Shown here in pieces: positions 12,025 through 62,538 of a stretch of 62,970 bases of DNA. Each line of letters starts with the position of its first letter. Within the stretch, counting starts at the first letter, position 1. A model generated the notes under the pieces. The model was not told the origin of the DNA and ran no database searches. It saw only the letters and a list, made by a program, of their open reading frames with translations. The stretch is from Candidatus Bathyarchaeia archaeon (lineage in GTDB: Archaea > Thermoproteota > Bathyarchaeia > Bathyarchaeales > Bathycorpusculaceae): positions 1 through 62,970 of the forward strand of contig JBEKHN010000014.1 of the NCBI GenBank assembly GCA_050012255.1, in the 5' to 3' direction. Made by a program: the position numbers and the translations under genes.

Positions 12025-12085
12025 CAAGAGTCAGAACACACGACTTCCGATGGATGATTAGCGCGCGCGAGAAACCGAGGTTATA

Positions 12086-12379
12086 GTGCATGCTCTTCTA
12101 GAGGGCTTTCTCAGAGCTATCCCAAGAGACATTGAATCAATCGAACAAGGAAAATACATCGCGTACTTAGTTCTAGCAATGGTAGAAACTCCGGAAATAC
12201 GAGAGAAGTTTGAAGAAAAAGACTTAACTAGTCTCTACCAAATCCCAGGCTTCTTGGAGTTCATAATGAATTTGATCAATGCTTCTGAAAGACAACTCGC
12301 CGATGCGCTAGCTGGAGTTCAAATGATTAAAGAAGGACTTAGCACCCACATCCAAGCCTACGCAGAAAGCGGAGATTGA
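12086..12379 (+). CDS. Hypothetical protein (97 aa, helical)
   Basis: ORF with GAGGT SD-like site; bounded by CG motifs on both sides. Confidence 0.55.
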   Translation: MHALLEGFLRAIPRDIESIEQGKYIAYLVLAMVETPEIREKFEEKDLTSLYQIPGFLEFIMNLINASERQLADALAGVQMIKEGLSTHIQAYAESGD

Positions 12380-12473
12380 AAGCAAGACCTCCTCTTAGTA
12401 GGTCTACTACAAAAAAAGAAAGATGCGCGCGCCAGCTCTAAAGGGGTCATTATCGGGCTTCATATAGTTCTCG

Positions 12474-13127
12474 TCAGAACAAACAAAGGGGCCTGTTGCA
12501 CAGAGTCCATAGGAACTCATCCAAGACTTTTACCTTTTGTATTTCATACTTTCCTGCTAATTCGGAAAAAACCACATCATATCTTCTAGTGAGGCCCTGC
12601 ATCTTCTTCATAAACTCAAAGTATTCCTCACCAGAGAACTCCATAACGCTCTTCTCGAGTTCCTTATGAAACGCTTTTTCAATGGCACTGTCCCAAGCAA
12701 GAAAGAAACTTGGACAAATAAGATGTAATGTCTTGGCTGCGCTTACACCACTATCCTTGAATGCTTTCTTCACAGATTTATAAAGTTCCATGATGTCAGC
12801 AGAAGACTCATCGAGATCATAATCATCAGCGATACTAGAGGTTCGGAGTTTCTGGAGTTTTTCCTGATTGTGTTGTATCCATGGTGCGAGCCTATTCTCC
12901 CAGCCTTTATACTTGGATCTGCCCAAGACGCGTCGCATATGTCCCCATTCAAGCAAGAATGGTCTTACGATCAGCTCCACACTTGCCTTAGTAATATCCT
13001 GCAAAGCAAGCTTCCCAAGTTCATCGACACTCTTTTCATAAACTCCTTCGCTTTCTGAATCTGTCCCATCATTATATCTTTTCACGCATTTTCTTATTAC
13101 TATAGGCTCTACCTCGAAACGATCCAT
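12474..13127 (-). CDS. Hypothetical protein with HhH-like glycosylase motif
   Basis: PFLLEWGHMRR, GVSAAKTLHLICPSFFLAWDSAI and C-terminal KVLDEFLW; GGTGAG SD-like site. Confidence 0.55.
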   Translation of the reverse strand: MDRFEVEPIVIRKCVKRYNDGTDSESEGVYEKSVDELGKLALQDITKASVELIVRPFLLEWGHMRRVLGRSKYKGWENRLAPWIQHNQEKLQKLRTSSIADDYDLDESSADIMELYKSVKKAFKDSGVSAAKTLHLICPSFFLAWDSAIEKAFHKELEKSVMEFSGEEYFEFMKKMQGLTRRYDVVFSELAGKYEIQKVKVLDEFLWTLCNRPLCLF

Positions 13128-13195
13128 TGTTACTCACCACATACTAGCTAGACCACATTACATTTATGACCTAGCATTAAGCGCGCGCCACGTTG

Positions 13196-13849
13196 CTAAG
13201 GGTCTATTAAGAACATTCTAATTCCTTTCACTGCCGGTGCTCCTAACATAGCAAGCAAATTAGGACCAGGCTGTCCTAGCCATATCGCGAAACTTCCAGT
13301 CAAAGCGATATAGTTGACAAGATTAACTGCTTTCTTGATGTGCCTAACATGGGCTCGCCATTCTTCTGGGACAATTCTCTCGAGATTTATTAATGGCAGG
13401 GCGTCAAGGCTTTCAAAGAGTTTGAATGTTTTTTTTAATCGTGAGAGTACCGATGAGCGAGTGACCAAAAAAACATATTCGTCTATGAGCATGTTCTTGA
13501 GTGGCTCGGACAAATGTGAGCCTTGTAGATGTGATCTAAATCTCTCAAAACTCTCCACAAGTTCTTTGGGCATGAATTCCGCCAGATTCCTCCATGAGAA
13601 AAGTTGGAAGAGCCCCTCAGTTCTCTCCACTACCGCCTCTATGCTCAAGATTTCTGACGCGTTAGTATAACTTCCATAGAACTCTTGAAACTCCGGATTT
13701 TCAATTTTCCTGATTCCGGCAGGAACATATATCAATCGCCTAGGGAGGATTCTTTGAAGTTCTTCTATCGAAGTCCAGAATCTCCGATGAATCAAGAGAG
13801 AAGGATCTAGAAGCACGGGTCTTAACTTTTCCGAAAACAAATTCTCCAA
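13196..13849 (-). CDS. Hypothetical protein, PIN-like N-terminus and hydrophobic C-terminal segment
   Basis: VLLDPSLL..IYVP at the N-terminus; hydrophobic LVNYIALTGSFAIWLG..LLAMLGA tail. Confidence 0.5.
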   Translation of the reverse strand: MENLFSEKLRPVLLDPSLLIHRRFWTSIEELQRILPRRLIYVPAGIRKIENPEFQEFYGSYTNASEILSIEAVVERTEGLFQLFSWRNLAEFMPKELVESFERFRSHLQGSHLSEPLKNMLIDEYVFLVTRSSVLSRLKKTFKLFESLDALPLINLERIVPEEWRAHVRHIKKAVNLVNYIALTGSFAIWLGQPGPNLLAMLGAPAVKGIRMFLIDP

Positions 13850-13917: not shown

Positions 13918-14562
13918 CTAGCGCGCGAGCTCTGCTTCGGACATTCTTCTTATATATCTCCGTGTTCTCGGTGCGGCCATGAAAATCATGCCGTTCTTTA
14001 TTGTACTACTTTTCGTTACAGTTGAGTCTTTGAAGTCTAGATTGATGCCCAGTCTTATGTTGACATAGTCTAGAACTTTCCTGTCCTTGAAGTCATAGAC
14101 TATCACATATTTCAGCCCGGAGAATAATCCAATCATGTCTAGCAGAAATTTGTCACCGCAAGGCTTGAGACACTTCAGAGCGGTTTCTTTGTTTCCTATT
14201 CCGTGAACGAGATTAGCCTTTACGTATTCAAGTTCTCTTCCAATTCGCTCTTTCATTGCATTCCTGAAATTTGTGTGATATCCATCAGCTATTGGCTTCT
14301 TGCAATATTCCCTTACATATTCAAATTCTGCGTTCGCCGGGGGAGAAAATGGAGGAGTGGTCTGCTCTGGATTGCCTGGGCTGAGCCCTAAGAACATCAC
14401 ATCCGCCTGGACTTTGGGTGGGAAATCTCGGAGTCGGAAGGGTTCGCATAAGAAATCTGCACGAACAATGCCATGGCAGGGATGGTTTGGATCATCTAAA
14501 GCCTTTTGATGGCAACGTATGATGTTTTCAATGAACTCTTCATAGCGCGAGATCAAAACCAC
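13918..14562 (-). CDS. Uracil-DNA glycosylase superfamily-like protein
   Basis: DVMFLGLSPG (UDG motif A-like), NLVH, C..FL..MI...LKYVIV; its stop codon is supplied by the GCGCGCTAG motif. Confidence 0.55.
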   Translation of the reverse strand: MVLISRYEEFIENIIRCHQKALDDPNHPCHGIVRADFLCEPFRLRDFPPKVQADVMFLGLSPGNPEQTTPPFSPPANAEFEYVREYCKKPIADGYHTNFRNAMKERIGRELEYVKANLVHGIGNKETALKCLKPCGDKFLLDMIGLFSGLKYVIVYDFKDRKVLDYVNIRLGINLDFKDSTVTKSSTIKNGMIFMAAPRTRRYIRRMSEAELAR

Positions 14563-14600
14563 ACCCTCGACACTTTGTGATTATCCATGACCAACAACAT

Positions 14601-14810
14601 AAAAACGGGGATTACGCGGGAGATATCGTGGCCTGAGTTTGAGTAAGCACGCGCTTCATATTAAACTCGATTGGTCATATAAATCTCAAGATGACGAAGA
14701 AAAAAGAGGGATTGGCGGGAGACATCGCCACTTGCAATAGAGTTCGTGACAACTCTCAGGGCAAAACTAAGTGTGGTTTGAATCCCACTCCCGCACCTGT
14801 ATGTTGAAAA
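14601..14810 (+). repeat. Tandem AAAAA..GGGATT..GCGGGAGAYATCG repeat followed by a degenerate tRNA(Leu)-like 3' end
   Basis: 14601-14632 resembles 14701-14731; GTGTGGTTTGAATCCCACTCCCGCACC at 14771-14797, then ATGTTGAAAA. Confidence 0.6.
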
Positions 14811-14966
14811 AGCCAAGGGGTTTGTCTGCGCGTGCCGGCCAAATACGCAACGCGTTTGGATGATGTTAACTAGTGATTTTCAATGGGTCACGGCAGTCAG
14901 CTCGCCGAACCACCAGCATTTGACAGACAAGAAACGTCTGCAATTGACGTGCATCGTACGTATGAG

Positions 14967-16343
14967 TCAGAGGAGGAGGGCGGCTTCCAAGTAAGAACAA
15001 ACCGATTCTGTCTTCTCTTTTGCGATTCCTGTGTATTCGTCAGGGTGTCTAAGTATTTTCTTCTGTTTTTCCGTCATTTTTTCGATATAAGGTCGGATTT
15101 GCTTGTCTTCCCATATTGCTTCCGACAGTTTTTGCCCACTTTCTCTAGCTTTCGTTGCCATTCTTCTCACATATTCATATGCATCAGGATGCCCATGAAT
15201 CGCTAACAGAATATAAAGAGGTTCCGCAACCACCTCTTTACTGCTTTCCTGCACATGCCTTTTGACGCTGTCCTTGTTTATCTTGATCTTTGCAAGTGCG
15301 TCTCTTGTCCAATTTACTGAGTGATCAAACGCGACAAACAATTCCGTCACAAATCTGCTTGAAGCCGAATTCGTAAGGTCACGTTGATGCTCAGAGATCT
15401 CATCCATGAAAACCGTTATTATTCTGGGCACGAAAGCCTTCCACATGCTTTTGACGTGCTCAAAATCCCAAGGGTTCACTTTATGAGGCATCGTCGAAGA
15501 TCCGACCCGATTGTCTTCCTTCAATTCTTCGATTTCTTGAATCTCACTGCGTTGAAGATGCCTAAAATCATCTGCAAGGTTGGCTAAAACTGAGAAGCAG
15601 GAGGTCACTGCACATGCCAAATCTGTCACAAACTGAGGCTCGACTATTTGGGTAGAATGTGTGGCTGGCTTGAGCCCAAGTTCAGACAAGACTTCTTTTT
15701 CAAACTTTTCAGGATCCGAAACTATCAATGACAGAGCATTGTAGGCTCCAACAGCGCCCGAAATCTTGCCACGTAGATTTTCCGCCGCATGAACTATTGT
15801 CTCTATTCTATCAGCAAGCCGGCTAACATACTTGGTTATTGCAAACCCAAATGTGATCGGTTCCGCAAACTTGCCATGTGTTCTCCCTATCTGAATTAGA
15901 TCGCTGTTATCCCTGGCCATTTCGATAAGATACCTCTCCAGCTCCAGCAGGTCTGGTAAGATTACTTTTTTGAACATATCTCTCAGACGCATAGCAGTAG
16001 CTGTATCGGTGATGTCCGATGAAGTCACCGAGAGATGAACAAACGGTTTGGCCCTTTCACTAACATTAGTTCTTATGCAATTCGCAAGTGCCCTCACACT
16101 GTGTTTTATTCTTTTTTCCTCAGCATATACATCCCCGATTCTGACCCTTTCACAAGCGTTCTCTATTTCCTCTGCGATTTCTTCAGAGCAGACTCCCCAT
16201 CTACTCATCACTCTTACAAGAGCAGTCTCTACATTCAATTGGTACCTGATGAAGGCCTCTTCAGAAGCAAAGGGCTGGAGTTTTCCAAAAAGTTCCTTAT
16301 TGTATCTATAGTCCAAAGGACTGACCATATCGAAAGGTCTCAT
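14967..16343 (-). CDS. purB: Adenylosuccinate lyase
   Basis: SPLDYRY, HLSVTSSDITD, GRTHG..AEPITFG, GAVG, signature GSSTMPHKVNP, EHQRDLTNS; the ORF could extend to 16430. Confidence 0.95.
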   Translation of the reverse strand: MRPFDMVSPLDYRYNKELFGKLQPFASEEAFIRYQLNVETALVRVMSRWGVCSEEIAEEIENACERVRIGDVYAEEKRIKHSVRALANCIRTNVSERAKPFVHLSVTSSDITDTATAMRLRDMFKKVILPDLLELERYLIEMARDNSDLIQIGRTHGKFAEPITFGFAITKYVSRLADRIETIVHAAENLRGKISGAVGAYNALSLIVSDPEKFEKEVLSELGLKPATHSTQIVEPQFVTDLACAVTSCFSVLANLADDFRHLQRSEIQEIEELKEDNRVGSSTMPHKVNPWDFEHVKSMWKAFVPRIITVFMDEISEHQRDLTNSASSRFVTELFVAFDHSVNWTRDALAKIKINKDSVKRHVQESSKEVVAEPLYILLAIHGHPDAYEYVRRMATKARESGQKLSEAIWEDKQIRPYIEKMTEKQKKILRHPDEYTGIAKEKTESVCSYLEAALLL

Positions 16344-16433
16344 TTCTCCACCTTCTCTCACATGTGAAGACGGTTCCGGCATTCTAACCGAACTAGCTCT
16401 CTTTCGGGGGTTCATTAACTCCCTCCTCATCCC

Positions 16434-16697
16434 TTAATTACCTTTCTGTTGAAGACGACGGGCAGTATCCACTCCTTTGCTAGAAAGCGAAATTCTGTAG
16501 TAACGCCGCATGCCTCGCTTCTCGGTCTTTACCTCGGCTAACTCTTCTTTTAGAAGATGGTCCACGTGTTTCTTGATAGTGGTCGATGACCCTGCCCCGA
16601 CAGCGCGCTGCAATTGAGCATAATCCATTGCATCTGTCGTATTTTTCAACAAGACTGAGAGAATATTGGTACATATATCATCAATTCTGGAAGTCAT
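16434..16697 (-). CDS. Winged-helix (ArsR/MarR-like) DNA-binding protein
   Basis: 87 aa, LQRAVG..SSTTIKKHVDHL..EELA..YYRISLSSKG; GAGGAG SD. Confidence 0.75.
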   Translation of the reverse strand: MTSRIDDICTNILSVLLKNTTDAMDYAQLQRAVGAGSSTTIKKHVDHLLKEELAEVKTEKRGMRRYYRISLSSKGVDTARRLQQKGN

Positions 16698-16809
16698 ATT
16701 CTCCTCTTTTCCACATATCTACAAATCATAATAATGCCAAGACTCGGATTTGATATATATGTTTTTCCAATTGAATCCTAGAAGCCCAACTGCCGTATCC
16801 AAAACCAGA

Positions 16810-16893
16810 AAAAAGGAAGTTGCGGGAGCCTGTGGAGACGTCGCCTGTTGAGATGGAGTTCAAACCCCATCCCCCGCATCATCATGTTGAAAA
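16810..16893 (+). repeat. Second copy of the GCGGGAG..GGAGACGTCGCC / tRNA-3'-like / ATGTTGAAAA repeat
   Basis: ATGGAGTTCAAACCCCATCCCCCGCA at 16853-16878 followed by ATGTTGAAAA; direct orientation relative to 14701-14810. Confidence 0.6.
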
Positions 16894-17118
16894 CTGCGGG
16901 AGTTCGTTTGGGTGACGTTGTCAGTATTTTCGCTTTCTGAAGATCTTGTGTTCGTTGAAGCCGCAGACAAAGTCGAAGCCGACGTCTAGTAGCGCGCGCT
17001 TGCTGCTAGGGAAAATCCCGTCTAGGCGGGAAAATGACCCGTAACCTGAGAAGGCTGAGTTTGGGATACGTTCTAAACCGTTTATCCAGCCAGTAGCGCG
17101 AAGTTAGAATTCTTCCTT

Positions 17119-18486
17119 TCATAAAGAATATTCTTTCGCATGTTCTATCATCTGGGCGTTCTTGAAGTAGTGTCCGAACAGCTGCTGATTCTCAGTATGC
17201 ACCGGAAAAACCTGTTTGGGTTGAATGCGGTTGATCAAGTCCACTAGTTGATCCTTATTCAAGTGTCCTGATGCGTGCAGCTGATGAAAGTGCATTCTGA
17301 AGTGATCTATCCAGTTGTGCATTACCTCATCTTCAATGTCTTCTTCGCTGAACGGCTCACTCATGCTGTGAATGAACTGACTTCCAGGCTTTGGTTTGAT
17401 GTCTATCAACTCCGCGAACTGGTAGAAGTCCAGGTCCATGACAAGCTTTCCTTGGTTCTTGTGAATAAACTCGTGCGTCACCATTTTGTCCATGAACTTT
17501 CGCTCCCAAACATAGTAGTCCTTCTCATCGAAGCCACCTGACTTTTTCCGCTTGTAATAAACCAGAATGTCAGCATCCTTCAGCGGATCCGGAAGGTCGA
17601 GATGCTCATCATCAAGAAGTTTGCTCAGTAAATATGCAGTCTTCGGTGAAACAACGATTTTCCTTCCGTTTTTCTTGGCGACTTTGTAGAAGCTTCTAAA
17701 CCTGTCCAAATCTCGACTGTAGCGCATCGCAAGCACCAACTTATCGGTTGAGGAAACAACTTCGTTGCTCAACTGCCTGACCTGAGATTCCGAATAGTTC
17801 TTGCGCTTCTCCTGTTCAACCATCCTTGTTCCCTCACAGATCAAGGCAACCGGCTCACAATTCTGGGCCTTCTCCAAGAAATCTTCGGTCAGATCTTTCC
17901 TTGGACCGTGAATTCTCAGGTCTCCCGTGTAGACCACTGACCCTTCAGAAGTGTGGATGATGAAGCCATAAGCGGCTGGAATAGAGTGATCCACATGCAC
18001 CGGTTCAACCGTCACGCCGTCAACCTTGAAGCTGTGTCCAGTGCGAAACTTGTGGCATTCATGTTCTCCATACTTGCAGAAACTACTAGTCTCTTCCATC
18101 GACTCCATCAACAGCTTAGTGCCGACCCCGACGTAAATGGGAATTTTCGGGTCCAAGAACTGAATGTGAGCTACATGATCAAAATGAGCATGCGACAAGA
18201 ACACAGCATCGACCTCAGGCTCAACGTATCAAAGACTGGTAGAAGCCAACATTTCCTGAGAATACAAACCGCTGATGCGAGGCAACAAGTTAAACGCAAA
18301 GTAATCTCCTAAACCGTTGACTCCTCTTGGTGCGAGCCAGCTCGTAAAGTAATCAGTACCAAAGGTGAAAGACTGCCCAAAATCGAAGAAAATCCTCGTC
18401 TTTCTGTCTTCTAGAAGAATCTTGTTGCCGCCAATCTCATTCACTCCACCATAGAACCTGAGTTTAACCAGATGAAGCCCCCTCAA
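17119..18486 (-). pseudogene. Metallo-beta-lactamase / RNase J-like hydrolase with an in-frame TGA at 18229-18231
   Basis: GGVNEIGGNK, DFG, SHAHFDH, VDHSIP, YTGD, HASGH, PVHTE; the two ORFs are in the same frame, separated by one TGA. Confidence 0.85.
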
Positions 18487-18543
18487 AAGAGCATAAGTAC
18501 AAGAGTCTTATAGCATCTTGCGAATGGAACGGAGCGGGTACGT

Positions 18544-18798
18544 ATGAGCAAAGAAGCAGTTGCGAGACAATTCTTCCTCGATTTTATCGAGAACCTTGGA
18601 AGCGAATACGAAGATGAATACAACCAAGAACATGATGAAGAAGAAGCCAACCTAATACTAACAGATCTCTTCTTTTCAGGCTTGTAGAAGATCGAGTGGA
18701 ATCCAAGAAAACATGTGTTAAGACTCAACTTCAGAGATCGCAAGAACAAAGAAAGCAAACGACAGAAGCGCGCCCTAGTGTTAATGTTCGAAAAGTAA
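18544..18798 (+). pseudogene. Small acidic hypothetical ORF with an in-frame TAG at 18685
   Basis: MSKEAVARQFFLDF...FSGL*KIEWNPRKHVLRLNF reads on in one frame. Confidence 0.4.
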
Positions 18799-18878
18799 TG
18801 TTGCTTCTGCTCTTCCTCATACTATATTACAGAAAATACTGATTCCATCATTGATTATCAAGGGACAAGCGTTACGCA

Positions 18879-19085
18879 CTAGCGCGCTAACCTTCGCGCA
18901 CCGGCAAGAGCAAGTAGCCCTCCAACTATTGGTAGAGAATCGACTACTGCGGCGATCAAGAAGACAGACTGTGATGAGCCGCGCGCGCAAATAACTGCAT
19001 TAATTAATTGTAATTGCAAATTCTTTCTCTGTTTACCAATTTGAAGTTCTTTGGTGGTCTCGAAAAGAAGTTCTGGATCATCCAT
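18879..19085 (-). pseudogene. Probable 5' gene remnant downstream of the AbiEii gene
   Basis: Starts 20 bp after the toxin stop, crosses a CG motif at 18981 and stops in another at 18880. Confidence 0.3.
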
Positions 19086-19105
19086 TTCAGTAGATTGATT
19101 CCGAA

Positions 19106-20266
19106 TTAGTTTGAAAGCAATGACTTTATATTTTCAAGGTTTTCAAGAGTTAGAACCTGCCAAAAGACTCTTTCCAATGATTTTCCTCGAAGATCCTTGT
19201 AATGGAGGATGCGTGTCTGTACGAGCTTCAACATTTTCTCTCTGAGATCGCCCACAGAATCTCCTGAAATCTTCCGCAGAGACGCCTCCATTTCCTTGCA
19301 TTCCCTGATGATCTCAGCAACATCGACGGGTTCCATCTCTTTTAATAGTCGCTTTTGCGCGAGAATGGCCAGAAATCGTATCCTCAAAGATTCAGAACTC
19401 CATTCATAATACGGCTTCCTCTGACTTTTGCTCACGAAGAATTGTTGAAATCTCTCTATTTCCCTCTTCGTGAGGACGTCAGCACTGGGAGTATCTACCA
19501 GTGAATATTTGTTCATGGCTTTCACGACATCATTGAGGGCTTCGATCGGAGTGACCTTTATTCTTCTGAAAGATGCCTCAAGTTTTGTCAATTCGTCTAT
19601 TGAAATAATCCTGTCACTAACGAACTGAGCTGAGACATCGCATGTCTCAAACAGTGCGTCGACGTCATAGATCTGCTTCGGCAGGTCTGCTTCAAGTTCC
19701 GTGCCTATGCTACCCCTGGCAAGCGTAAGCAGTTTGTCACCTATGAGTGCCCCAGCGGTGGAGCATCTTACTCTGTTGACTTTCAAGGCAAAGGTTTGGA
19801 CGTTGTGGAGATCAGCGTGAGGCAAGTCAGGGCTCTCACATAGAAAATCAAGTTTGATCTCTAGCTTTTCTCTTTTCGGATCCACTTGGGAAGGAACGCT
19901 TGCGAGATATGTCAATAGAGGAAGCTCAAGGTTGGGCTTCTTAGGTTCATACCGCGAAAACTCTGCACATCCTTCCAATGTCTTTCCCAGCTGTAGGATG
20001 ACTTCTTCAACGTCCTTTTTCTCCAATGTTGTCGCCAGGTCTGCGTCAACACTTCCTCTCTGTTTTTCCAAAGGTAGATGCAACTGAGCGGCGGCGCCTC
20101 CTTTCAGCACCATTTTGTTACAAAGAATCTGCAATTGTGCTGTGAGTTCGCAGTCCCAAAGAAAGATTTCGACGGCTAGAGGGTTTGGGTATTCATAGTA
20201 CTCTGCTCTTCGTAGTATTTCATCCTTGGTGAAATACTTGGCCGCATGTATCAGCTTTATCGCCAT
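19106..20266 (-). CDS. AbiEii/AbiGii-family nucleotidyltransferase toxin
   Basis: MVLKGGAA..LHL...RGSVDADL, IKLDF, GDKLLTL, KQIYDV. Confidence 0.85.
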   Translation of the reverse strand: MAIKLIHAAKYFTKDEILRRAEYYEYPNPLAVEIFLWDCELTAQLQILCNKMVLKGGAAAQLHLPLEKQRGSVDADLATTLEKKDVEEVILQLGKTLEGCAEFSRYEPKKPNLELPLLTYLASVPSQVDPKREKLEIKLDFLCESPDLPHADLHNVQTFALKVNRVRCSTAGALIGDKLLTLARGSIGTELEADLPKQIYDVDALFETCDVSAQFVSDRIISIDELTKLEASFRRIKVTPIEALNDVVKAMNKYSLVDTPSADVLTKREIERFQQFFVSKSQRKPYYEWSSESLRIRFLAILAQKRLLKEMEPVDVAEIIRECKEMEASLRKISGDSVGDLREKMLKLVQTRILHYKDLRGKSLERVFWQVLTLENLENIKSLLSN

Positions 20267-20745
20267 TCTACGGCCTCCATGGTTTTCAGAAAGTCTTTCA
20301 CGTGTTTGTTCTCGACTTTGGGCCTTGAAGAAGTCATGGGCTGGACGAAGTCTAGTAGCACGTCAATTTCCTTTTCAATTCCTCTCCTATTAGCAAACAT
20401 TAACAAACGACTGTGGCTAATCGGCTCATTTCTTGATACCCTGAGAAAGATGCGAGCCGCTTCTTCTTCAGGAAAAGGTATTCTATTTCTAGTTGACTCA
20501 AAGTAGAGATCCACCAGAGCTCGTTCCAGAGAAGCTGTTCCATCAATGTTGCCAAGAAGCCCAGAAAACTCCCTTACAACGAAAATATCCCTTTCAGCGA
20601 AGTTCTCAAGGGCTAAGCTAATATCATTTCTTGTTGGATTCAACAAAGCTCTCATTCCTGCCTCGCGAAGCGAGAGAACTGCCAATTCTCCAGACCCTCT
20701 GATGATGTATATTAGTTCAACTAGACGCTTAGGCAGGTTGGGCAA
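20257..20745 (-). pseudogene. AbiEi-like antitoxin, C-terminal part (5' end missing)
   Basis: [11 protein letters not shown] and LLMFANRRG motifs; overlaps the toxin start; no N-terminal wHTH. Confidence 0.6.
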
Positions 20746-20884
20746 GAGAGGAGCTTGGGAAGTAGATCACAGTCGGCCACTTTCGAGAGGCGGGACTGAC
20801 TACCTAAGAAACCTTGTTCCTTCCTGCGTTGAATGTAACCGTAGCAAGGGTGATTTGGGAACACGTGAATTTGGAAACTACTAG
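20740..20884 (+). pseudogene. HNH endonuclease 3' fragment
   Basis: [34 protein letters not shown] with no start or N-terminal CxxC. Confidence 0.75.
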
Positions 20885-20942
20885 CGAAAGATTATATCTG
20901 GATTCAGGGCGCGCTCTTGGTGGATCATAGCTTGATTGTGCC

Positions 20943-21016
20943 GTTCAAAAATATTGAACATACGTAAAATATTGAACAAGTTCAGTAAAACTGAACATAT
21001 AAATACTTCACTGAAC
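20943..21016 (+). promoter_or_regulatory. Operator/promoter: two GTTCA-N7-TGAAC inverted repeats, extra TGAAC half-sites and a TATA box
   Basis: 20943-20959 and 20980-20996; TATAAATA at 20998. Confidence 0.65.
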
Positions 21017-21028
21017 AATGATCGCATT

Positions 21029-22051
21029 ATGGTCAGAAGCATATTCACAGGAAAATCCAGCAGAGTAGTCCGCGTTCTACTATCAAAACCTACAGGAACA
21101 TGGAGAACCCGAGAACTGGCATTGGAAGCCAAAGCCAGTTTAGGGACGGTCTCCACAGTCACAAACAAGCTAATCGACATGGGTTTTCTGGTTAGAGACA
21201 GATCAATGCGCCTTAAGCTACGTAAAGAGGAAGAACTACTCAGAAGATGGGCATCGTTCTACGACCCGAATATTTTGCCACACAAGACGTATTATGCTCA
21301 AGGTACGGTATATGAAATAGGGAGAGCGCTGGCGAAGACAGCAATGCGATATGGTCTAGAATATGCGTTCACAGGACCCTTCGCAACAGATCTTCTCACG
21401 CAATACATCAGACCCGCAGAGATTCACATGTACCTAACGAATGAAGACGATTTGAAAAAAATCGTAGATGACCTAAGTCTTGAAATTGCTGAAATCGGTG
21501 GGAATGTGATTTTCCTAATAGCCGAAGACGAGTCAGTTCTATACGGATTAAGAAATACGACAGATGACAGAGTTGGCACGGTCTCAGTGGTTTCGGAGGT
21601 TCAATTAGTTCTAGATTTGTTCAACCTCACCGACAGAACGAGAGAAGCAGCCGAACGGCTCTTGACCAAGAATCTCGAAAGAAAGACTCAAGGAATGGAC
21701 CTAATTGAACTTGCCATGCGGTTTTTCGAGCAAAAAGGACTAACCGCTGAGAAGGCACGAACAACAGGCCCCGTACAGCAACCTGACATAATCCTTTTTG
21801 ACCCAAAGACTGAGGAATACATTCTGGTCGAATGCAAGAACACAACCGCAAAACTGGAAGCCGTGGACCAGTTGAAAAAGGCAATTGCATCTTTCCCAAA
21901 GAAAGCAAAAGGTGTTATAGTCGCACCACGCATAACTGGCGCTGCAATGAAGGAATTGGAGAAGGCACAACTGACATTTGAATCCATAGAGGCGATCGAA
22001 CGTGGTCTACACAAAGGCACAAATCGAAACATCTTACAAAGCATTGAATGA
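21029..22051 (+). CDS. wHTH AbiEi-like antitoxin fused to a C-terminal PD-(D/E)xK (Mrr-like) nuclease domain
   Basis: RELALEAKASLGTVS HTH, YAFTGPFA, VSEVQLVLDL..RTREAAE, then QPDIIL..LVECK. Confidence 0.75.
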   Translation: MVRSIFTGKSSRVVRVLLSKPTGTWRTRELALEAKASLGTVSTVTNKLIDMGFLVRDRSMRLKLRKEEELLRRWASFYDPNILPHKTYYAQGTVYEIGRALAKTAMRYGLEYAFTGPFATDLLTQYIRPAEIHMYLTNEDDLKKIVDDLSLEIAEIGGNVIFLIAEDESVLYGLRNTTDDRVGTVSVVSEVQLVLDLFNLTDRTREAAERLLTKNLERKTQGMDLIELAMRFFEQKGLTAEKARTTGPVQQPDIILFDPKTEEYILVECKNTTAKLEAVDQLKKAIASFPKKAKGVIVAPRITGAAMKELEKAQLTFESIEAIERGLHKGTNRNILQSIE

Positions 22052-22151
22052 AATCAGTGAAGCGTTCAATCGCAACAAAGCGCGCGCGCTATCCTCTGCA
22101 AAAGCGAAAAAGGTTTCACTTCAGAAGATTTATCGATGCACAAAAGCCTGA
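22002..22151 (+). pseudogene. 5' remnant of a nucleotidyltransferase toxin, broken at the CG motif
   Basis: MVYTKAQIETSYKALNEI parallels MLYEPSETKTSQKQLKQI at 35619; similarity ends at GCGCGCGCGC (22080). Confidence 0.5.
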
Positions 22152-22160
22152 AGGAAGTGT

Positions 22161-22274
22161 TCAGACCCGTTTCTTTGTTCTCTTGGATCCGCTGTTCAGA
22201 CCTTTCAGTATTGCATAGTTTTCCCTAATGCTTTCATGAAGAACGGCAACGGGGTCTTTTCGGCACTTTGCCAT
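22161..22274 (-). CDS. 37-aa small ORF overlapping the Fic/Doc 3' end, possible partner
   Basis: MAKCRKDPVAVLHESIRENYAILKGLNSGSKRTKKRV; below the ORF track cut-off. Confidence 0.35.
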   Translation of the reverse strand: MAKCRKDPVAVLHESIRENYAILKGLNSGSKRTKKRV

Positions 22275-22629
22275 CTCTTAACCACGCTTCTATCTCAATC
22301 ACATTATAAGACTTGATGTCTTTTATAAACCTGATTACTTTCAGCTCATCATCAACCCTTATTCTTTCTCCGTTCATTCGCAGGAAAATGTCTGTAATTG
22401 CGTAGGCCGTACGGTGATTTCCGTCGCAGAATATCCTTACATCTACAAGTCTCCTCAGGAGAACCGCTGCCTTTCCACATATGCCCTTCGTCCTTTTCAT
22501 TTCTTTCAAAACGACATCGAGCAATTGGATGCCTCTCTCGAAACCAGCATGACCACCAAACTCCGACAGCATCTCTTCGTGGGTTTTCAGAACAAGATTC
22601 TTGCCAGGATACCAAGTTCTAGTTGGCAC
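22234..22629 (-). CDS. Fic/Doc family protein
   Basis: KAAVLL..RIFCDGNHRTA..FLRMNG. Confidence 0.8.
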   Translation of the reverse strand: MPTRTWYPGKNLVLKTHEEMLSEFGGHAGFERGIQLLDVVLKEMKRTKGICGKAAVLLRRLVDVRIFCDGNHRTAYAITDIFLRMNGERIRVDDELKVIRFIKDIKSYNVIEIEAWLRDGKVPKRPRCRSS

Positions 22630-22717
22630 GCTTCCTAATTGTCATGACAAGATTAAAGGATAGCGTTTCGCCGCCAACGCGCGCTAAGCACTGACTAAAC
22701 CAATGTAACATTGGCTT

Positions 22718-31100: not shown

Positions 31101-31238
31101 TAGCGTTCAGTAGACCTAGGTCTACATAGTAAGGGTACCCCTACCAAGACCCCGATTCTCAAAAACAAATCGGGGAAGATGCGGGAGAAATAGCGAGCTT
31201 TTAGCGGTTTTTTCTACGGTTAGCGCGCGCCTATTTTG

Positions 31239-31943
31239 TTACTTTAGGATTTTCCATACTGCTGCTGCCAAGAGTCCACCGATTATGGGAGCTACCCAGA
31301 ACAACCAAAGCTGGCTAAGTGCCGTGCCGCCGACGATGACTGCGGGACCTAAGCTTCTAGCAGGGTTAACCGATGTGCCAGTTATGGGTATTCCCACAAG
31401 GTGAATAAGCGTTAGGCTTAACCCGATGGCTATTCCAGCAAATCCTTTCGGCGCGTTCTGGCTTGTTGCGCCGAAAACGACAAGAAGGAATATGAATGTT
31501 AACACGACTTCAGCAATGAACGCGGCAGTCATGGAGTAACCAGCTGGAGAAGCTACACCATACCCGTTTTGTCCCAGACCATTACTCGCTAAGCTGTAAG
31601 CGGGGTTACCGATAGCGATCCAGTAAAGTAGCCCTGCACCAATTACGGCGCCTATGCACTGGAAAACTACGTATCCTACAGTATCTTTGACGCTTAATTT
31701 ACCAGCAGCCAACATGGAGATTGAAATAGCGGGGTTTATGTGGCAGCCAGAGATGCCTCCAATCGCGTAAACCATCACGAGCACAGCTAAACCAAAAGCT
31801 AAAGCAATGCCTACAGTGCCGTTACCGCCTAAGCTCGAAAAGTTTTTGCCTGCAATCACGGCGCTTCCGCAGCCCATCAACACCAGCACCATTGTCCCGA
31901 CGAGTTCAGCAGTGTATTTCTTGAATGGACTAATTCCACTCAC
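31239..31943 (-). CDS. aqpZ: Aquaporin Z (MIP family)
   Basis: AELVGT, ISGCHINPA, TSVNPARS, LWLFWVAP. Confidence 0.95.
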   Translation of the reverse strand: MSGISPFKKYTAELVGTMVLVLMGCGSAVIAGKNFSSLGGNGTVGIALAFGLAVLVMVYAIGGISGCHINPAISISMLAAGKLSVKDTVGYVVFQCIGAVIGAGLLYWIAIGNPAYSLASNGLGQNGYGVASPAGYSMTAAFIAEVVLTFIFLLVVFGATSQNAPKGFAGIAIGLSLTLIHLVGIPITGTSVNPARSLGPAVIVGGTALSQLWLFWVAPIIGGLLAAAVWKILK

Positions 31944-45862: not shown

Positions 45863-46121
45863 TTCCAGTCGTGCGAGTCATCATCAACGTTGTGAGTAGC
45901 ACGCGTGCGTGTTCCCAAATTCCGTTTTTCTAGTGTGAGAGTTGGGACGCGCCTTCTACCGATGCTCTCTCCCATCTCATGGCAGATCACAATCCATCGA
46001 CGGAGCAAAGCCAGAAGCATAAAATACTTTGCAAACGAATTTAGGAACAGACATACGCGCCATTGTAATGAGAGCGGACGCCAAATCAATAAATACCAGT
46101 GAATGGCAACTTACGCACACT

Positions 46122-60717: not shown

Positions 60718-60730
60718 TGCTCTGGCCCTC

Positions 60731-61246
60731 TCACTTGTGCGGAGGACTGAACCAGTCCCACGGTTTGCCCACGCGAGGGTCGTCTTTCTTGCCGTTTATC
60801 TCCGTCGGAACTATTTTCTGGTCGTTCCACGGCCTGCGGACTTCGTCTGGATTCTTATAGTCGTAGAGCCTTGTCACGAAGTAAACCGTCAATGATGGTT
60901 CGTTGCTGACCGTTTTTGTCCCGTGCAGGTACTTGCCCGGTATTCTCACAATCGTCGGCTTTTCGCTGCTGGTTATGACTTCTGCCAGTTTTCCCGTCTC
61001 TTCTTCATAGGCGCAGATCTTCATTGCTCCTTTCAGCACGAGGAAGTAGTCGACTTGCCCTCTCACATGTTTGTGCCATGCTCTAACGACGTTTGGGTAG
61101 CTGCTGCTTACGTTCACCTGCGTTATCCATTCGTCTAGAAACATTTCTTTCCAGTCTTGTCTGAGCGCCTCGGCGAAAAAGCCTCTTTCGTCTGGCAGGA
61201 TGTTTATTTCGTTGGTTTTCACTCCTTTCAAGGGGTACTCTTTCAT
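60731..61246 (-). CDS. rfbC: dTDP-4-dehydrorhamnose 3,5-epimerase
   Basis: DERGFF, VRAWHKH, IPG..LHG, DEVR.PW. Confidence 0.9.
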   Translation of the reverse strand: MKEYPLKGVKTNEINILPDERGFFAEALRQDWKEMFLDEWITQVNVSSSYPNVVRAWHKHVRGQVDYFLVLKGAMKICAYEEETGKLAEVITSSEKPTIVRIPGKYLHGTKTVSNEPSLTVYFVTRLYDYKNPDEVRRPWNDQKIVPTEINGKKDDPRVGKPWDWFSPPHK

Positions 61247-62313
61247 ATTTCCACCTCTGAATAGTCTCCAACGTGAAGTTTTATCGCTCTGGTCTTTCTG
61301 TTTTTACACACCACAGCGTTCTTGCCTATGAGGCTTTCCTCCAGCCTGTCAACGTCCTGAACTAGAGCGTTCTCTAGGATTACAGAGTATTCCACGTTGG
61401 AGCTCACGATTCGTGAGTTGTCTCCAACACTCGTGTAAGGCCCTATGAAGGAGTTCTCCACCACCGTGTTCTTGCCTATAGTGCATGGGCCTCTGACCGT
61501 GCTGTTCGTTATCTTCGCCCCAGCGTCTACTCTGACTCTTCCTTCGACGGTGCTGTTTTCGACTTTTCCCTTGACGCTTCTCTTTATGTACTCGTCCAAT
61601 ATTTTCGCGTTGGCCGAGAGAATGTCGTCTTTCTTGCCTGTGTCTATCCACCACGTCTTGAGCACTCCAGCTTTGACCTTGAAACCCATGTTTATCATTT
61701 CTCGCAAGGCGTCAGTTATTTCCAGTTCACCCCTCCATGAGGGCTTGATCCTTTCTATGGCCTGGTGGATCCTGTTGGAGAGTATATAAGTGCCGACTAT
61801 TGCGAGGTTACTCGGGGGTTCCTTAGGCTTTTCTATGAGCTGCTTTATGTTGCCTTCTCCGTCCAAGACGGCTACGCCGTATTTCGTCGGGTCTTCCACT
61901 TCTTTCAGGAGGATGAGTCCGTCGAGCTTTTCTCGTTGAAACCTCTTGACGAGGTTAACTATTCCTAAACCTTGAAGGTTGTCCCCCAAGCACATGACAA
62001 GGCTGTCGTCTTTCAAGAAGCCCTTGGCAGTCTTGACTGCGTGTGCCAGACCCAACGGCTCTTGAGTGATGTAAGTGACGTTGAAACCCCATTCCGCGCC
62101 ATCCTTAACGTATTCCTTGACATAGCTTCCAGTCTCTGGCGCGATGACCAGACCAACATCGGTTATGCCCGTTTCCGCGACCTGGTCGAGAACGTAGCCG
62201 AGAATAGGCCTGTTTGCGACGGGAATCAGCTGCTTGGCCAGTGTAAACGTCAGAGGCCTGAGCCTAGTGCCCTTTCCCCCGCTTAGGACCAACGCCTTCA
62301 AGTGTTTCGCCAC
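61243..62313 (-). CDS. rfbA: Glucose-1-phosphate thymidylyltransferase (long form)
   Basis: LSGGKGTRLRPLT..KQL, PLGLAHA, EKP, RGELEITDA, hexapeptide tail. Confidence 0.93.
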   Translation of the reverse strand: MAKHLKALVLSGGKGTRLRPLTFTLAKQLIPVANRPILGYVLDQVAETGITDVGLVIAPETGSYVKEYVKDGAEWGFNVTYITQEPLGLAHAVKTAKGFLKDDSLVMCLGDNLQGLGIVNLVKRFQREKLDGLILLKEVEDPTKYGVAVLDGEGNIKQLIEKPKEPPSNLAIVGTYILSNRIHQAIERIKPSWRGELEITDALREMINMGFKVKAGVLKTWWIDTGKKDDILSANAKILDEYIKRSVKGKVENSTVEGRVRVDAGAKITNSTVRGPCTIGKNTVVENSFIGPYTSVGDNSRIVSSNVEYSVILENALVQDVDRLEESLIGKNAVVCKNRKTRAIKLHVGDYSEVEI

Positions 62314-62395
62314 TTTATCGGGTAGAGTGTCAATGGTGACTTAAGTATTTCCTCACAGTAATTAAAGCAACACGCGCTAATCGCTTAAGAAATAA

Positions 62396-62538
62396 CGGGC
62401 CCGCCGGAACCCATACCCAAAAGGGCTCGAGTCCATTCCTAGAAAGAGAGCAGTGCGGGGAGTGGGACCCCCACCCAAGTATACCGGTAAAAAAGCATAC
62501 TTAGTATGCTTGGTGAGAGTTCGAATCCGCGCGCGTGC
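62396..62538. other. Intergenic mosaic of short tRNA-3'-like fragments, a 19-bp hairpin and a CG motif
   Basis: 62453-62467 reverse complement = TCCCACTCCCCGCAC; AAGCATACT-T-AGTATGCTT at 62493-62511; GAGAGTTCGAATC running into CGCGCGCG. Confidence 0.45.

Follow-up and report, generated by a model that had tools for sequence, protein, structure and literature searches.

Insertion sequences of the IS5/IS1182 type encode a transposase with a DDE_Tnp_1 catalytic domain and an N-terminal DUF772 domain. They measure about 1.1 kb, carry one ORF or two overlapping ones, end in terminal inverted repeats (TIRs) of about 23 nt, prefer TA just outside, and have short non-autonomous relatives (MITEs) with the same ends. 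IS4/IS5-type transposases excise through hairpins on the transposon ends and leave the donor free of element bases, and we know of no footprint or scar formation in such a family. Other comparable systems are HIP1 of cyanobacteria (GCGATCGC), a lineage-specific, GC-rich 8-nt palindrome with hundreds to thousands of copies that is common in genes; REP/RAYT elements, which are intergenic, palindromic and clade-specific, number in the hundreds and measure about 20–40 nt with a GTAG head; integron cassettes, which form single-gene runs bounded by palindromic attC sites of 57–141 nt; and the GC clusters of fungal mitochondria, GC-rich palindromes of about 30–40 nt that lie dispersed among the genes of an AT-richer genome, are considered mobile and have no associated DDE transposon. 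Tc1/mariner-Stowaway excision leaves a few terminal element bases at the donor site. In work on eukaryotic DNA-transposon excision, loss often comes with flanking deletions of up to kilobases, frequently one-sided, and with filler (PMC4423477; mPing, PMC4561436); 86 of 94 rice excisions described there had flanking deletions and/or filler, with at most 2.5 kb removed on one side (PMC4423477).

Here we analyze a 62,970-nt stretch (the window) of a Bathyarchaeia genome (G000), in which a preliminary description had read short (GC)n runs at gene junctions as a candidate for an undescribed gene-capture or recombination signal. That reading missed a more ordinary source of the motif. An IS5/IS1182-like insertion sequence and its MITEs end in inverted repeats whose outermost bases are (GC)3. 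The element shares the features of the type listed above but scores below every NCBIfam equivalog cut-off, its termini start with self-complementary (GC)3, and no clean target duplication was resolved. The isolated motif, like REP, is intergenic, clade-specific and palindromic in hundreds of copies, yet is only 8–10 nt long, and no Y1 transposase was found in the five genomes searched. It bounds single-gene runs as integron sites do (window 12–14.6 kb; contig C24), but is dispersed genome-wide and shows no structured site of attC size. Fungal mitochondrial GC clusters are longer and lack the DDE transposon found here.

A GC palindrome between genes of the window

The window (GC 0.464) holds eight GCGCGCGC matches against 0.49 ± 0.75 expected from 100 dinucleotide-preserving shuffles, none of which reached eight; about 0.4 had been estimated earlier. 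The matches start at 12061, 12425, 13181, 16992, 18981, 22080, 22082 and 31223, those at 22080 and 22082 forming a single 10-nt run. None lies within an ORF call, in agreement with the seven positions first listed as outside intact genes. Alternating G/C runs of at least 6 nt number 19, eight of them at least 8 nt long (including CGCGCGCG at 62528) and 11 of 6–7 nt; three overlap ORF calls (1959, 50074 and, at an ORF 3′ edge, 13921). Eleven one-transition variants, some overlapping runs, all lie outside ORF calls, which roughly matches the 23 or so shorter or variant copies proposed before. Genes were called with a crude program of our own making (2243 ORFs covering 80% of the genome), so coding and intergenic figures are approximate. 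Runs mark 7 of 11 junctions between called genes at 11–22.7 kb and 3 of 26 at 28.7–56.3 kb. As first reported, they are missing inside operons: none occurs at three BREX junctions, three rad50-mre11-herA-nurA junctions or five junctions of the 56.3–62.3 kb cluster.

Four sites of a proposed five-junction series are real (12061, 12425, 13181, 13921), while the fifth, placed at 14645, is the variant GCACGCGC at 14647. The run GCGCGCGCG (12061–12069; left flank TTA) lies 17 nt upstream of ORF 12086–12379; the solo GCGCGCGC at 12425–12432 separates this plus-strand ORF from the convergent ORF 12474–13127(−); the next (13181–13188; left flank TAA) is 8 nt off the stop end of ORF 13196–13849(−); and TA-GCGCGCG (13921–13927) forms the 3′ edge of ORF 13918–14562(−), its TA and first G making up a TAG-type stop region. 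A 6-nt GCGCGC follows at 16603–16608, with other 6–7-nt runs outside ORF calls at 20909, 39869, 52536 and 56217. The solo copy at 16992–16999 (left flank GTA) is 68 nt outside a block common to the window, G001 and G007, whose left end is at 17067.

The AbiE module (18872–22127) is missing from G001, a congeneric genome assembled as a single contig, and runs stand near both of its ends. By eye, 18768–18876 is a probable degenerate MITE or IS-end remnant, reading from GCGCGC-CCTAG-TGTTAAT to ATCAAGGGACAAGCG; homology to G001 stops at 18871, and the G001 sequence at that point is the TIR end GGGACAAGCGCGCGC. The palindrome TAGCGCGCTA, correctly noted before at 18880 (18880–18889), lies 11 nt past this block end, at the left edge of the module. 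Within the variable segment, a solo CGCGCGCGC (18980–18988) is 118 nt from the AbiEii ORF 19106–20266, and a solo (GC)5 followed by TA (22080–22089) is 29 nt past ORF 20936–22051 and 39 nt before G001 homology restarts at 22128; G001 carries CGCGCGC exactly at that joint. A CGCGCGC-TAA (22678–22684) precedes by 18 nt a further restart at 22702, the rad50 3′ end. The solo copy at 31223–31230 (left flank TTA) is 9 nt off the stop end of ORF 31239–31943(−) and 36 nt inside a 905-nt segment (31188–32092) missing from G001. A complete MITE with mutated termini occupies 45896–46060 (GTA-GCACGC-GTGCG-TGTTCCCAAATT ... AATTTAGGAACA-GACAT-ACGCGC-CAT), and the solo CGCGCGCG (62528–62535) is 42 nt past the end (62486) of a long block common with G001. 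Separately, contig depth spikes at the 18768–18876 remnant.

Genome-wide abundance and form

The 2.35-Mb genome holds 434 GCGCGCGC copies, about 20-fold denser outside than inside ORF calls, bearing out the claim of a strongly non-coding motif far above chance. It abounds in each of the 10 same-genus genomes; copy numbers are 0–14 in other genera of the family. G024, from another family, has 53, including 12–14-nt runs, with no element found. Alternating runs have the length spectrum 6:517, 7:171, 8:201, 9:123, 10:63, 11:2, 12:2, 14:1, 16:1. Spacer densities per kb are 0.67 (tandem), 0.82 (convergent) and 0.52 (divergent), no Rfam family matched, and other dinucleotide repeats are not enriched genome-wide (ATATATAT, 11; ACACACAC, 28).

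The motif is a palindrome (A-GCGCGCGC-T) with no directional signal. Around 393 runs of at least 8 nt, the sole marked preferences are the symmetric −1 A (62%) and +1 T (56%), and TA[AG] on the right (26/153) has its mirror image, [CT]TA, on the left (21/153), contrary to the oriented consensus put forward earlier. The reported leaning of variants toward transitions is real but of ordinary size: at the central four positions, four transition variants total 151 copies versus 106 for eight transversion variants. Of 84 copies in aligned blocks, 33 are identical, about as many as neutral change would leave in 8–9 nt at ~90% identity and thus no sign of selection for the motif; 24 differ by indels or at least three changes.

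The (GC)3 ends of an IS5/IS1182-like element

The insertion sequence of this genus is about 1.08 kb long and encodes a transposase with Pfam domains DUF772 and DDE_Tnp_1; its MITE derivatives measure 140–200 nt. The inverted repeat reads GCGCGC-[AT][TA]GC-N-TGTTCC(T/G)AAATT, or GCGCGC(GC)-CAGC-TGTTGCAAAAT in a second subfamily, and TA lies directly outside about half of the element ends. The strict TIR core has 74 matches in G000, and ends combining a GC run with the TIR number 73 in G000 (68 with exactly (GC)3) and 36 in G001. In G009, an intact 329-aa transposase ORF lies 70 nt inside TA-GCGCGC-ATGCC-TGTTCCGAAATT, and a two-ORF copy in G001 (389080–390160) is enclosed by TA-GCGCGC and GCGCGC-TA. 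Transposase homologues occur in 7 of 11 genus genomes including G000, where fragments at three contig ends suggest unassembled copies. All scores fall below NCBIfam equivalog cut-offs (IS1182, 139 bits versus 270; IS5_4, 103 versus 140). The sole fully resolved insertion showed no clean target-site duplication.

Synteny breaks and indel junctions

The motif had been expected at gene presence/absence breakpoints, and this holds genome-wide but not in the window alone, where 4 of 32 block ends on the G000 side carry it (null 4.0). Among 113 clean indels relative to the complete congeneric genome, the short-allele junction contains a run of at least 6 nt in 38 (null 5.3 ± 2.3) and of at least 8 nt in 28 (null 2.3 ± 1.5); 64 have no motif at all. 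Runs mark 157 (G000) and 226 (G001) of 934 homology-block ends, or 17–24% against a null of 5.3%, and 60 ends carry the motif in both genomes. A run is at the junction in either genome in 56 of 118 replacements; in seven, the same edge of a conserved block has the motif in both genomes, with different DNA beyond it (for example, C1 250446–251525). Twenty-five blocks have motifs at three or more of their four ends, including single conserved genes flanked in both genomes, and in the islands C24 4–13 kb and C32 almost all ORFs are flanked, 3–60 nt from their ends. The motif-bounded "cassettes" examined encode, by eye from translations, a putative methyltransferase (450 aa) and a putative GTP-binding protein (198 aa).

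G000, G003, G009 and G004 carry a 3.3-kb segment that G001, G010 and G007 lack, which makes the long allele ancestral; at least nine further events have a long-allele ORF that spans a breakpoint. The deletion joint is common to G010, which lacks the motif, and G001, which has CGCGCGCGC there and a second (GC)5 of its own 23 nt upstream in place of GGACG. The motif can therefore arise after a deletion, replacing a few bases.

Elements and solo motifs at orthologous sites

Species differ in their elements as well as in their isolated motifs, and both kinds of site lie at synteny breaks. A pristine empty site, TATGAATA-[GCGCGC..MITE..GCGCGC]-GAAGTTAGC in G001 versus TATGAA(T/C)A-GT(T/A)... in G007, G003 and G000, shows that (GC)3 travels with the element, since the three other genomes have no GC run there. 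Conversely, G000 C3 43055–43218 is TA-GCGCGC-MITE-GCGCGC-TA, and the same site is TA-GCGCGCGC-TA in G001 and G010 and TA-TCGCGAGC-TA in G007. Reading the rows, we found a solo run at the orthologous spot for about 8 of about 18 informative TIR ends; a script tallied 11 solo versus 19 neither. Opposite a 1241-nt IS remnant of G000 (C10 59513–60755), G001 retains GCGCGC-AT.., the element's first bases. The gene upstream of site C3 43055 is followed in G008, where no element was found, by GCGCGCGC at a similar distance; this favors an old solo motif that was later the target of the G000 MITE.

Discussion

We favor, at about an even chance, the reading that isolated (GC)3–5 copies are remnants of this transposon family and of accompanying deletions, excision being judged from assembled contigs. 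The several hundred isolated copies would be what is left once an element is lost. Two self-complementary (GC)3 termini could rejoin in registers overlapping by 6, 4, 2 or 0 nt, giving (GC)3, (GC)4, (GC)5 and rarely (GC)6, lengths that agree with the observed spectrum, which breaks off sharply at 10–12 nt. Rejoining might follow excision by the transposase, through end joining, or result from slippage across the inverted repeat. Loss would often come with a one-sided deletion, as in rice DNA-transposon excisions, so that a scar would replace 0.2–4 kb and remove one original flank, and surviving scars would be confined to non-essential DNA, that is, between genes and in variable islands. Several observations count against remnants. 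Three motif-rich genomes have few or no elements: G009 has 359 motifs, two ends and one transposase; G008 has 254 motifs, no element ends and no transposase found; and G004 has 128 motifs, no ends and no transposase. MAGs are prone to losing repeats, but G004 is 93% complete in 20 contigs. Flank statistics misfit simple excision. Solo 8-mers have TA on both, one or no side in 6/71/93 cases in G000 and 18/107/102 in G001; the 3.5–8% with TA on both sides fall short of the ~25–30% predicted by two element-like flanks. The data fit one element-like and one random flank, which calls for near-universal one-sided loss, and a full (GC)4 surviving resection of one end is hard to explain. The motif that appears to have arisen after the 3.3-kb deletion, the G008 solo at a MITE site, the lack of a clean target duplication and the hairpin excision of IS4/IS5-type transposases also weigh against it. 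Putative scars here, unlike eukaryotic footprints, are prokaryotic, number hundreds with one fixed palindrome, and exceed elements 3- to >100-fold.

An unlikely but credible alternative is that recombination or insertion takes place at the motif itself, or that the motif is filler written at DNA joints, in a genus-wide cutting or joining at (GC)4–5. Motif-bounded modules would be exchanged, inserted and deleted, with the IS and MITEs merely adopting the same ends; in a variant, any DNA between two (GC)3 ends could be mobilized by the IS transposase. Motif presence in 10 of 10 genus genomes versus the IS in 7 of 11 fits such a site, as do the replacement of a few bases at or near an old deletion joint, the G008 motif at the G000 MITE site, the 25 multiply bounded blocks and the two motif-rich islands. 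The earlier suggestion of a crossover or target site draws on the 7 of 118 replacements sharing a motif edge, but 24 of the 38 motif-bearing indels have a long allele without motif within 40 nt of either end, which excludes two-site excision for these 24, and 64 of 113 indels are motif-free. Moreover, no recombinase or nuclease was found to track the motif, a lone 8-nt palindrome is very small for a site-specific enzyme, and the examined cassettes encode housekeeping proteins whose variable neighbors explain the pattern as well as mobility does. We consider it improbable that the motif is a selected intergenic element (a nucleoid or insulator protein site, a bidirectional terminator or a TAG-bearing stop cassette). 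The 20-fold intergenic enrichment, frequent positions 3–60 nt from ORF ends, TA flanks yielding TAG on both strands, 60 of 934 block ends with the motif in both genomes and possible positional retention over deep divergence at one site (G008 versus C3 43055) would suit such a role; yet start and stop distances are not fixed, tandem, convergent and divergent densities are similar, alignable copies are not conserved above neutral, flanks carry no information past ±1–2 nt, Rfam has no family, and operon-internal and most core junctions in the window lack the motif, as do sister genera with the same gene repertoire.

Still less probable is a (GC)n microsatellite, or a tract prone to Z-DNA, that lengthens by slippage until instability caps it and that itself provokes breaks and deletions. 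Orthologous copies do vary by ±2 nt, transition variants preserve purine-pyrimidine alternation, and G024 has long runs without an element, but lengths peak at 8 and collapse past 10 with no geometric tail, entire 8-nt copies are gained or lost against seedless sequence, and other dinucleotide repeats are not enriched; 8–10 nt is also short for Z-DNA in vivo. Very unlikely is a HIP1-like palindrome made or kept by a cognate DNA methyltransferase and short-patch repair. Hyper-abundance, lineage specificity and GC-rich 8-nt form recall HIP1, but this motif avoids coding DNA and is linked to transposon ends, and the proposed methyltransferase link gains no support: PF00145 C5 methyltransferases were found in 3 of 31 genomes (G000, G007 and the unrelated G030), hence 2 of 11 in the genus, and G001 and G009 yielded none. 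An assembly or scaffolding artefact filling gaps with a fixed string, as a short string of at most ~10 nt replacing kilobases in one genome might hint, is hardly plausible, given copies at orthologous places in independently assembled genomes, presence in 10 of 10 genus genomes and not in sister genera, identity with the termini of a genuine, transposase-encoding IS, the single-contig G001 assembly, and point and ±2 length variants among copies.

If isolated motifs are transposon remnants, junctions would be marked because a transposon was there, and the motif itself would be no capture signal. The remnant reading would also account for the motif where gene content varies between relatives.

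A short palindrome concentrated between genes

The palindrome GCGCGCGC lies at every window coordinate where the preliminary description had placed it (eight matches at seven loci), whereas dinucleotide-preserving shuffles gave 0.49 ± 0.75 and none of 100 reached eight. The window is contig C14 of the genome under study, G000 (2,351,129 bp in 38 contigs, GC 0.48), which contains 434 overlapping matches. Of these, 363 fall outside and 71 inside ORF calls, a roughly 20-fold difference in density that bears out the proposed intergenic bias. The calls came from a crude home-made caller (2243 ORFs, 80% of the DNA), and with them the control GC-rich palindromes GGCGCC, GCCGGC and GCGGCCGC gave ratios of 0.6–0.8. 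The excess also holds against a first-order Markov background (358 non-coding copies observed, 5.3 expected), and no non-coding 8-mer in the genome is more over-represented than GCGCGCGC. An order-5 model expects 332, so the signal is already present in the 6-mer.

The motif had been read earlier as a directional (GC)n-TA(A/G) signal. Among 393 alternating G/C runs of at least 8 nt, only positions −1 (A, 62%) and +1 (T, 56%) depart from background, in a symmetrical manner; the flanks beyond them show no conservation. TA adjoins at least one side of ~46% of non-coding GCGCGCGC copies, and right-hand TA[AG] is matched by its mirror, [CT]TA, on the opposite side. The motif is thus palindromic and has no orientation. 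Maximal alternating runs peak at (GC)4 and stop sharply beyond (GC)5, with 517 of 6 nt, 171 of 7, 201 of 8, 123 of 9, 63 of 10, two each of 11 and 12, and one each of 14 and 16. Motif density is alike whether the spacer is tandem, convergent or divergent, the G000 ORF calls gave no favored spacing from starts or stops, and single-base variants of the motif show an ordinary transition excess.

Each of the 10 other genomes of the genus carries 29–464 copies, compared with 0–14 across the family's eight other genera. G024, from another family of the order, has 53 GCGCGCGC matches, some of them within (GC)n runs of 12–14 nt (for example, C8 28423-28436 and C25 70055-70066). We found neither the terminal inverted repeat nor the transposase homologue described below in G024, and its runs may be an independent phenomenon. 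A literature search on GCGCGCGC in archaea, archaeal excision footprints or MITEs, and archaeal highly iterated palindromes returned nothing on the motif.

Association of the motif with synteny breaks

We compared G000 with G001, a relative of the same genus assembled as a single contig of 2,346,764 bp, keeping 486 unique BLAST blocks that cover 1.48 Mb. The figures are subject to the incompleteness of metagenome-assembled genomes (MAGs) and to an estimated contamination of 5–8%, and they were obtained from contigs. Among 256 collinear neighboring block pairs, 113 are clean indels, in which one allele spans at most 60 nt and the other at least 200 nt. The short allele carries a run of at least 6 nt in its junction in 38 of the 113 and of at least 8 nt in 28; random non-coding windows of equal sizes gave 5.3 ± 2.3 (maximum 13) and 2.3 ± 1.5 (maximum 8), respectively. 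In this single pairwise comparison, with block ends defined by BLAST to about ±10 nt, the 934 block ends with a run at or just outside them number 157 in G000 and 226 in G001, or 323 when either genome counts and 60 when both must, against 5.3 ± 0.8% for random non-coding positions. Replacement events show a run at the junction in either genome in 56 of 118 cases. The motif is not involved at all in 64 of the 113 clean indels, and the long allele lacks a motif near its ends in 24 of the 38 motif-bearing ones. Where TA accompanies a run at a block end, its orientation is unbiased (34 toward the conserved side, 32 toward the variable side). Both the observation and its genome-scale association with breakpoints are real, and the motif is not directional.

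Relative to G001 907–944 kb, the window is a mosaic. At the junctions that correspond to window block ends 18871, 29051 and 34412 (3 nt off), G001 carries the motif itself; it has a 7-mer at 22128 and, at 35915, a 6-mer. The window's own runs lie 11–39 nt from block ends 18871, 22128, 22702 and 31187. The proposal that the motif marks module junctions is strongly supported genome-wide. On the window side taken alone it is not significant, with 4 of 32 ends lying no more than 40 nt from a run and a null of 4.0 ± 1.9. The breakpoint association therefore rests on the genome-wide counts together with the G001-side junctions of the window.

Genes and junctions of the window

Four gene groups make up the window. 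One encodes a BREX system, in which a large AAA protein lies between a methylase (Eco57I, N6_Mtase and MmeI_Mtase domains), a PglZ-domain protein and BrxL. Small ORFs without annotation form the second. The third holds a purB-like adenylosuccinate lyase (87% protein identity to the enzyme of a "Candidatus Bathyarchaeia archaeon" MAG), a metallo-beta-lactamase-fold protein with RMMBL, an AbiEii/AbiEi pair and a Fic-domain ORF, and the fourth is rad50-mre11-herA-nurA. As had been noted from the sequence, junctions within operons lack runs of at least 6 nt (BREX, 0 of 3; rad50-nurA, 0 of 3; the cluster at 56.3–62.3 kb, 0 of 5). Such runs occur at 7 of 11 junctions between called genes at 11–22.7 kb and at 3 of 26 at 28.7–56.3 kb. 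Rfam searches at gathering score matched no family in the window or in five motif-dense loci, nor did searches at E ≤ 1 in window 14400-23200.

Two features of this region are recorded separately. The AbiEii/AbiEi toxin-antitoxin module at 18872-22127, which includes an ORF with AbiEi_2 and NucS_C/Mrr domains, is not in G001, where ~700 nt of other sequence stands instead. One contig from the public run X2 joins 18816 to 22141 and represents the AbiE-less form, so this segment is a strain-variable defense module beside BREX and the Fic-domain ORF; public-run contigs also contain a joint that goes back, at 22995/17067. By eye we spotted a tRNA-like gene at 14707-14798, with a 7-nt acceptor 5' strand GCGGGAG that pairs with CTCCCGC near the end, a T-arm-like stretch GGTTTGAATCC and probably an intron. 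ARAGORN reported zero tRNAs in the window, and both it and Rfam missed this candidate. Contigs from four public runs are stacked over 14698-14735, and one of them leaves out 14731-14775.

A transposon and MITE family with (GC)3 tips

Many runs adjoin a repeated terminus, GCGCGC-[AT][TA]GC-N-TGTTCC(T/G)AAATT, whose strict core has 74 matches in G000 and 47 in G001. Complete copies are MITEs of 140–200 nt with this terminus inverted at both ends (a copy with mutated tips lies at window 45896-46060), and several G000 contigs terminate ~100 nt inside one. A DDE_Tnp_1 search identified the autonomous form. In G009, a genome of the same genus, an intact ORF of 329 aa (L194:1138-2127) starts ~70 nt inside TA-GCGCGC-ATGCC-TGTTCCGAAATT and matches PF01609 (88 bits) and PF05598 (DUF772, 42 bits), as expected for a DDE_Tnp_1-type transposase. 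G001 has split copies, of which one of 1080 nt, at 389080-390160, retains both ends and carries two overlapping ORFs; a degenerate copy lies at G000 C24 15248-16333. The terminal inverted repeat (TIR) is shared at both ends by the 1.08-kb copy and the 140–200-nt copies, and a second subfamily ends in GCGCGC(GC)-CAGC-TGTTGCAAAAT. Scores fall below the NCBIfam equivalog cut-offs (IS1182, 139.1 bits against 270; IS5_4, 102.7 against 140), and by these profile matches the predicted transposase is a divergent relative of IS1182/IS5 and not a member of a named equivalog.

Ends consisting of a GC run plus the TIR number 73 in G000 (68 exactly (GC)3), 36 in G001, 32 in G003, 14 in G007, four in G006 and two each in G002 and G009; among the genus genomes, we found none in G004, G005, G008 or G010. 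TA stands directly outside 40 of the 73 ends in G000 and 18 of the 36 in G001; the one resolved insertion, with TA on its left flank and GAA on its right, shows no clean target-site duplication. Transposase homologues occur in 7 of the 11 genus genomes and, at 29–48% identity, in five other genera.

Empty sites show to which partner the GC run belongs. The MITE at G001 532698-532906 reads TATGAATA-GCGCGC...GCGCGC-GAAGTTAGC, and the corresponding site in G007, G003 and G000 is TATGAA(T/C)A-GT(T/A).. with no GC run; ~10 other element ends also face a run-free orthologous site. The (GC)3 is therefore part of the element. For 13 of the 14 complete MITEs in G000, no more than one flank has a joint orthologue in G001; the elements, like the isolated (GC)3-5 copies that lack an element ("solos"), sit at synteny breaks.

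Other candidates for the mobile sequences were set aside. An IS630-like identity for the TA-flanked MITEs was rejected, with PF13358 (IS630/Tc1-type transposase) in 0 of 31 genomes, and a TnpB search gave nothing above cut-off in five genomes. ORFs adjoining TIR ends proved to be ordinary genes (methyltransferase, wHTH, dockerin). The largest repeats of G001, considered as possible IS elements, turned out to be paralogous genes. The main dispersed repeats are TATA-binding-protein (TBP), OB-fold (SSB/RPA-like) and Alba genes plus a glycosyltransferase. Copies of the TBP and OB-fold genes share 81–99% DNA identity, and paralogue copies lie at 870–874 kb, 1341–1342 kb, 1415.7–1418 kb, 1663 kb and 695 kb (L067, L093), with an Alba gene adjoining the L093 copy. 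G001 also has a 6-kb tandem duplication at 2,096,997-2,108,976 (99.95% identity). Further over-represented non-coding 8-mers of G000 (GGGGGAGG/CCCTCCCC, GCATATAC/GTATATGC and CCCTAGGG) come at least partly from MITE-subfamily interiors, for example C15 39053-39233 and C3 116573.

Solos, deletions and turnover

At G000 C3 43055-43218, a MITE of the form TA-GCGCGC...GCGCGC-TA stands opposite TA-GCGCGCGC-TA in G001 and G010 and TA-TCGCGAGC-TA in G007. The (GC)4 here equals 4 + 4 nt of the two element termini. Reading the alignments row by row, we counted ~8 element ends whose orthologous position in the other genome holds a solo, among them C3 43055, C8 39446 and G001 1730230; a script tally gave 11 of 30 informative ends. 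Opposite an IS remnant at G000 C10 59513-60755, G001 retains GCGCGC-AT.., the first bases of the element. If two (GC)3 tips were joined with an overlap of 6, 4, 2 or 0 nt, runs of 6, 8, 10 and, rarely, 12 nt would result, and these are the length classes observed.

The C3 43055 site may also have a deeper history. G008 is a distant member of the genus, and we found no IS in it. On the minus strand of G008 C2 (L144, ~position 1430 of the locus), GCGCGCGC lies ~70 nt downstream of a conserved gene end, at about the same distance from the same gene as in the C3 43055 site (G001 1435570), with a spacer that is not alignable. This suggests that the solo is old and that the G000 MITE later inserted into it. 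The G008 copy is either an ancient retained copy or the product of recurrent formation there. We found no site with all three states, pristine, element and scar.

Several observations bear on the polarity of the motif-bearing indels. An ORF of the long allele spans the breakpoint in at least 9 of the 38, and the short, motif-bearing allele therefore looks like a deletion. G003, G009 and G004, which are more distant, share the 3.3-kb segment at G000 C8 12774-16064, and the allele without it in G001, G010 and G007 is therefore derived by deletion. G010 has the same joint without a motif; G001 has CGCGCGCGC there, as well as a second (GC)5, found in G001 only, that replaces GGACG 23 nt upstream of the joint. 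Outgroups did not polarize event 18, where distant genomes show a different context. A DNA-level search at a putative GTP-binding-protein locus gave no distant orthologues. Within aligned blocks of the two genomes, 33 of 84 motif copies are identical, 27 have one or two substitutions, five have three or more and 19 have indels, among them clean presence/absence of 8 nt and length differences of ±2 nt. Motif conservation in these blocks is not above neutral expectation.

Origin of the isolated copies

The motif is most economically traced to a divergent family of IS5/IS1182-like transposons and MITEs with (GC)3 tips, previously undescribed, and we give about an even chance that the solos are remnants of this family. 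In a study of rice, 86 of 94 DNA-transposon excisions had flanking deletions or filler, one of them 2.5 kb and one-sided, which provides a precedent for scars located at deletions (PMC4423477). The flanks and the phyletic distribution fit this origin less well. Among solo 8-mers, TA stands on both, one or no side in 6, 71 and 93 cases in G000 (n = 170) and 18, 107 and 102 in G001 (n = 227). Two element-like flanks, as in an excision footprint that keeps both, predict 25–30% with TA on both sides, which the solos do not show; one element-like and one random flank predict ~3/50–54/43–47%, near the observed values. Survival of a complete (GC)4 after resection of one end would also fit the remnant origin poorly. 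Motifs greatly outnumber element ends in G009 (359 vs 2), G008 (254 vs 0) and G004 (128 vs 0), and of these three only G009 has the transposase. These misfits keep alive a less probable idea, close to the gene-capture or recombination signal first proposed, as do the old solo suggested at C3 43055, the position of elements at synteny breaks, islands on contigs C24 and C32, where solos bracket nearly every ORF, and several conserved single genes with the motif on both sides in both genomes and unrelated DNA outside. In that case (GC)3-5 would be a working DNA-joining signal, such that any segment between two such ends could be cut out and pasted elsewhere; the agent would be the IS5-like transposase or a host activity that also writes (GC)4-5 at broken or deleted sites. 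We regard this combination as improbable. It would also differ from an integron cassette array, which has a structured attC-type site; here the site is 8–10 nt with no conserved flanks.

Explanations that do not invoke mobility fare worse. Neutral decay, the lack of any positional rule, absence from sister genera and the lack of an Rfam match make a selected regulatory or structural site unlikely. A plain microsatellite leaves the capped length spectrum and the gain of whole motifs unaccounted for. HIP1 is abundant in coding and non-coding DNA alike, whereas the present motif is scarce in coding DNA (71 in, 363 out; density ratio 20), and a HIP1-like palindrome would lack its enzyme: the suggestion that a cognate C5 methyltransferase tracks the motif fails, with a PF00145 C5 methyltransferase in 2 of 11 genus genomes (G000 and G007) and 3 of 31 overall. 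The two C5 DNA-methyltransferase genes of G000 lie at C7 4931-5887 and C6 37304-38281, and most congeners are without them. A REP/RAYT system was rejected, as the Y1 (IS200/IS605-like) transposase PF01797 is in 0 of 5 genomes (G001, G007, G009, G008 and G012) with positive controls. Orthologous copies in independent assemblies, together with the IS itself, exclude an assembly artefact.

Implications

Excision footprints are commonplace among eukaryotic transposons; to our knowledge, they have not been reported on such a scale in prokaryotes, and our literature search found nothing similar to such a scar record for archaea. Whether the solos are remnants or joining sites, annotating the motif as a regulatory element is unwarranted without further evidence. 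Were the motif an active joining site, it would represent a new and very small recombination signal for module exchange and a genome-wide mark of gene capture and gene loss, with MITEs only its smallest passengers. If the solos are instead scars, several hundred visits by transposons could be read in this genus from a fixed palindrome of 8–10 nt. Such scars, which mark 38 of 113 large indels between two species, would make variable islands in metagenome-assembled genomes easy to tag by sequence and would give direct access to the frequency of gene loss caused by cut-and-paste elements in an uncultured archaeal lineage.
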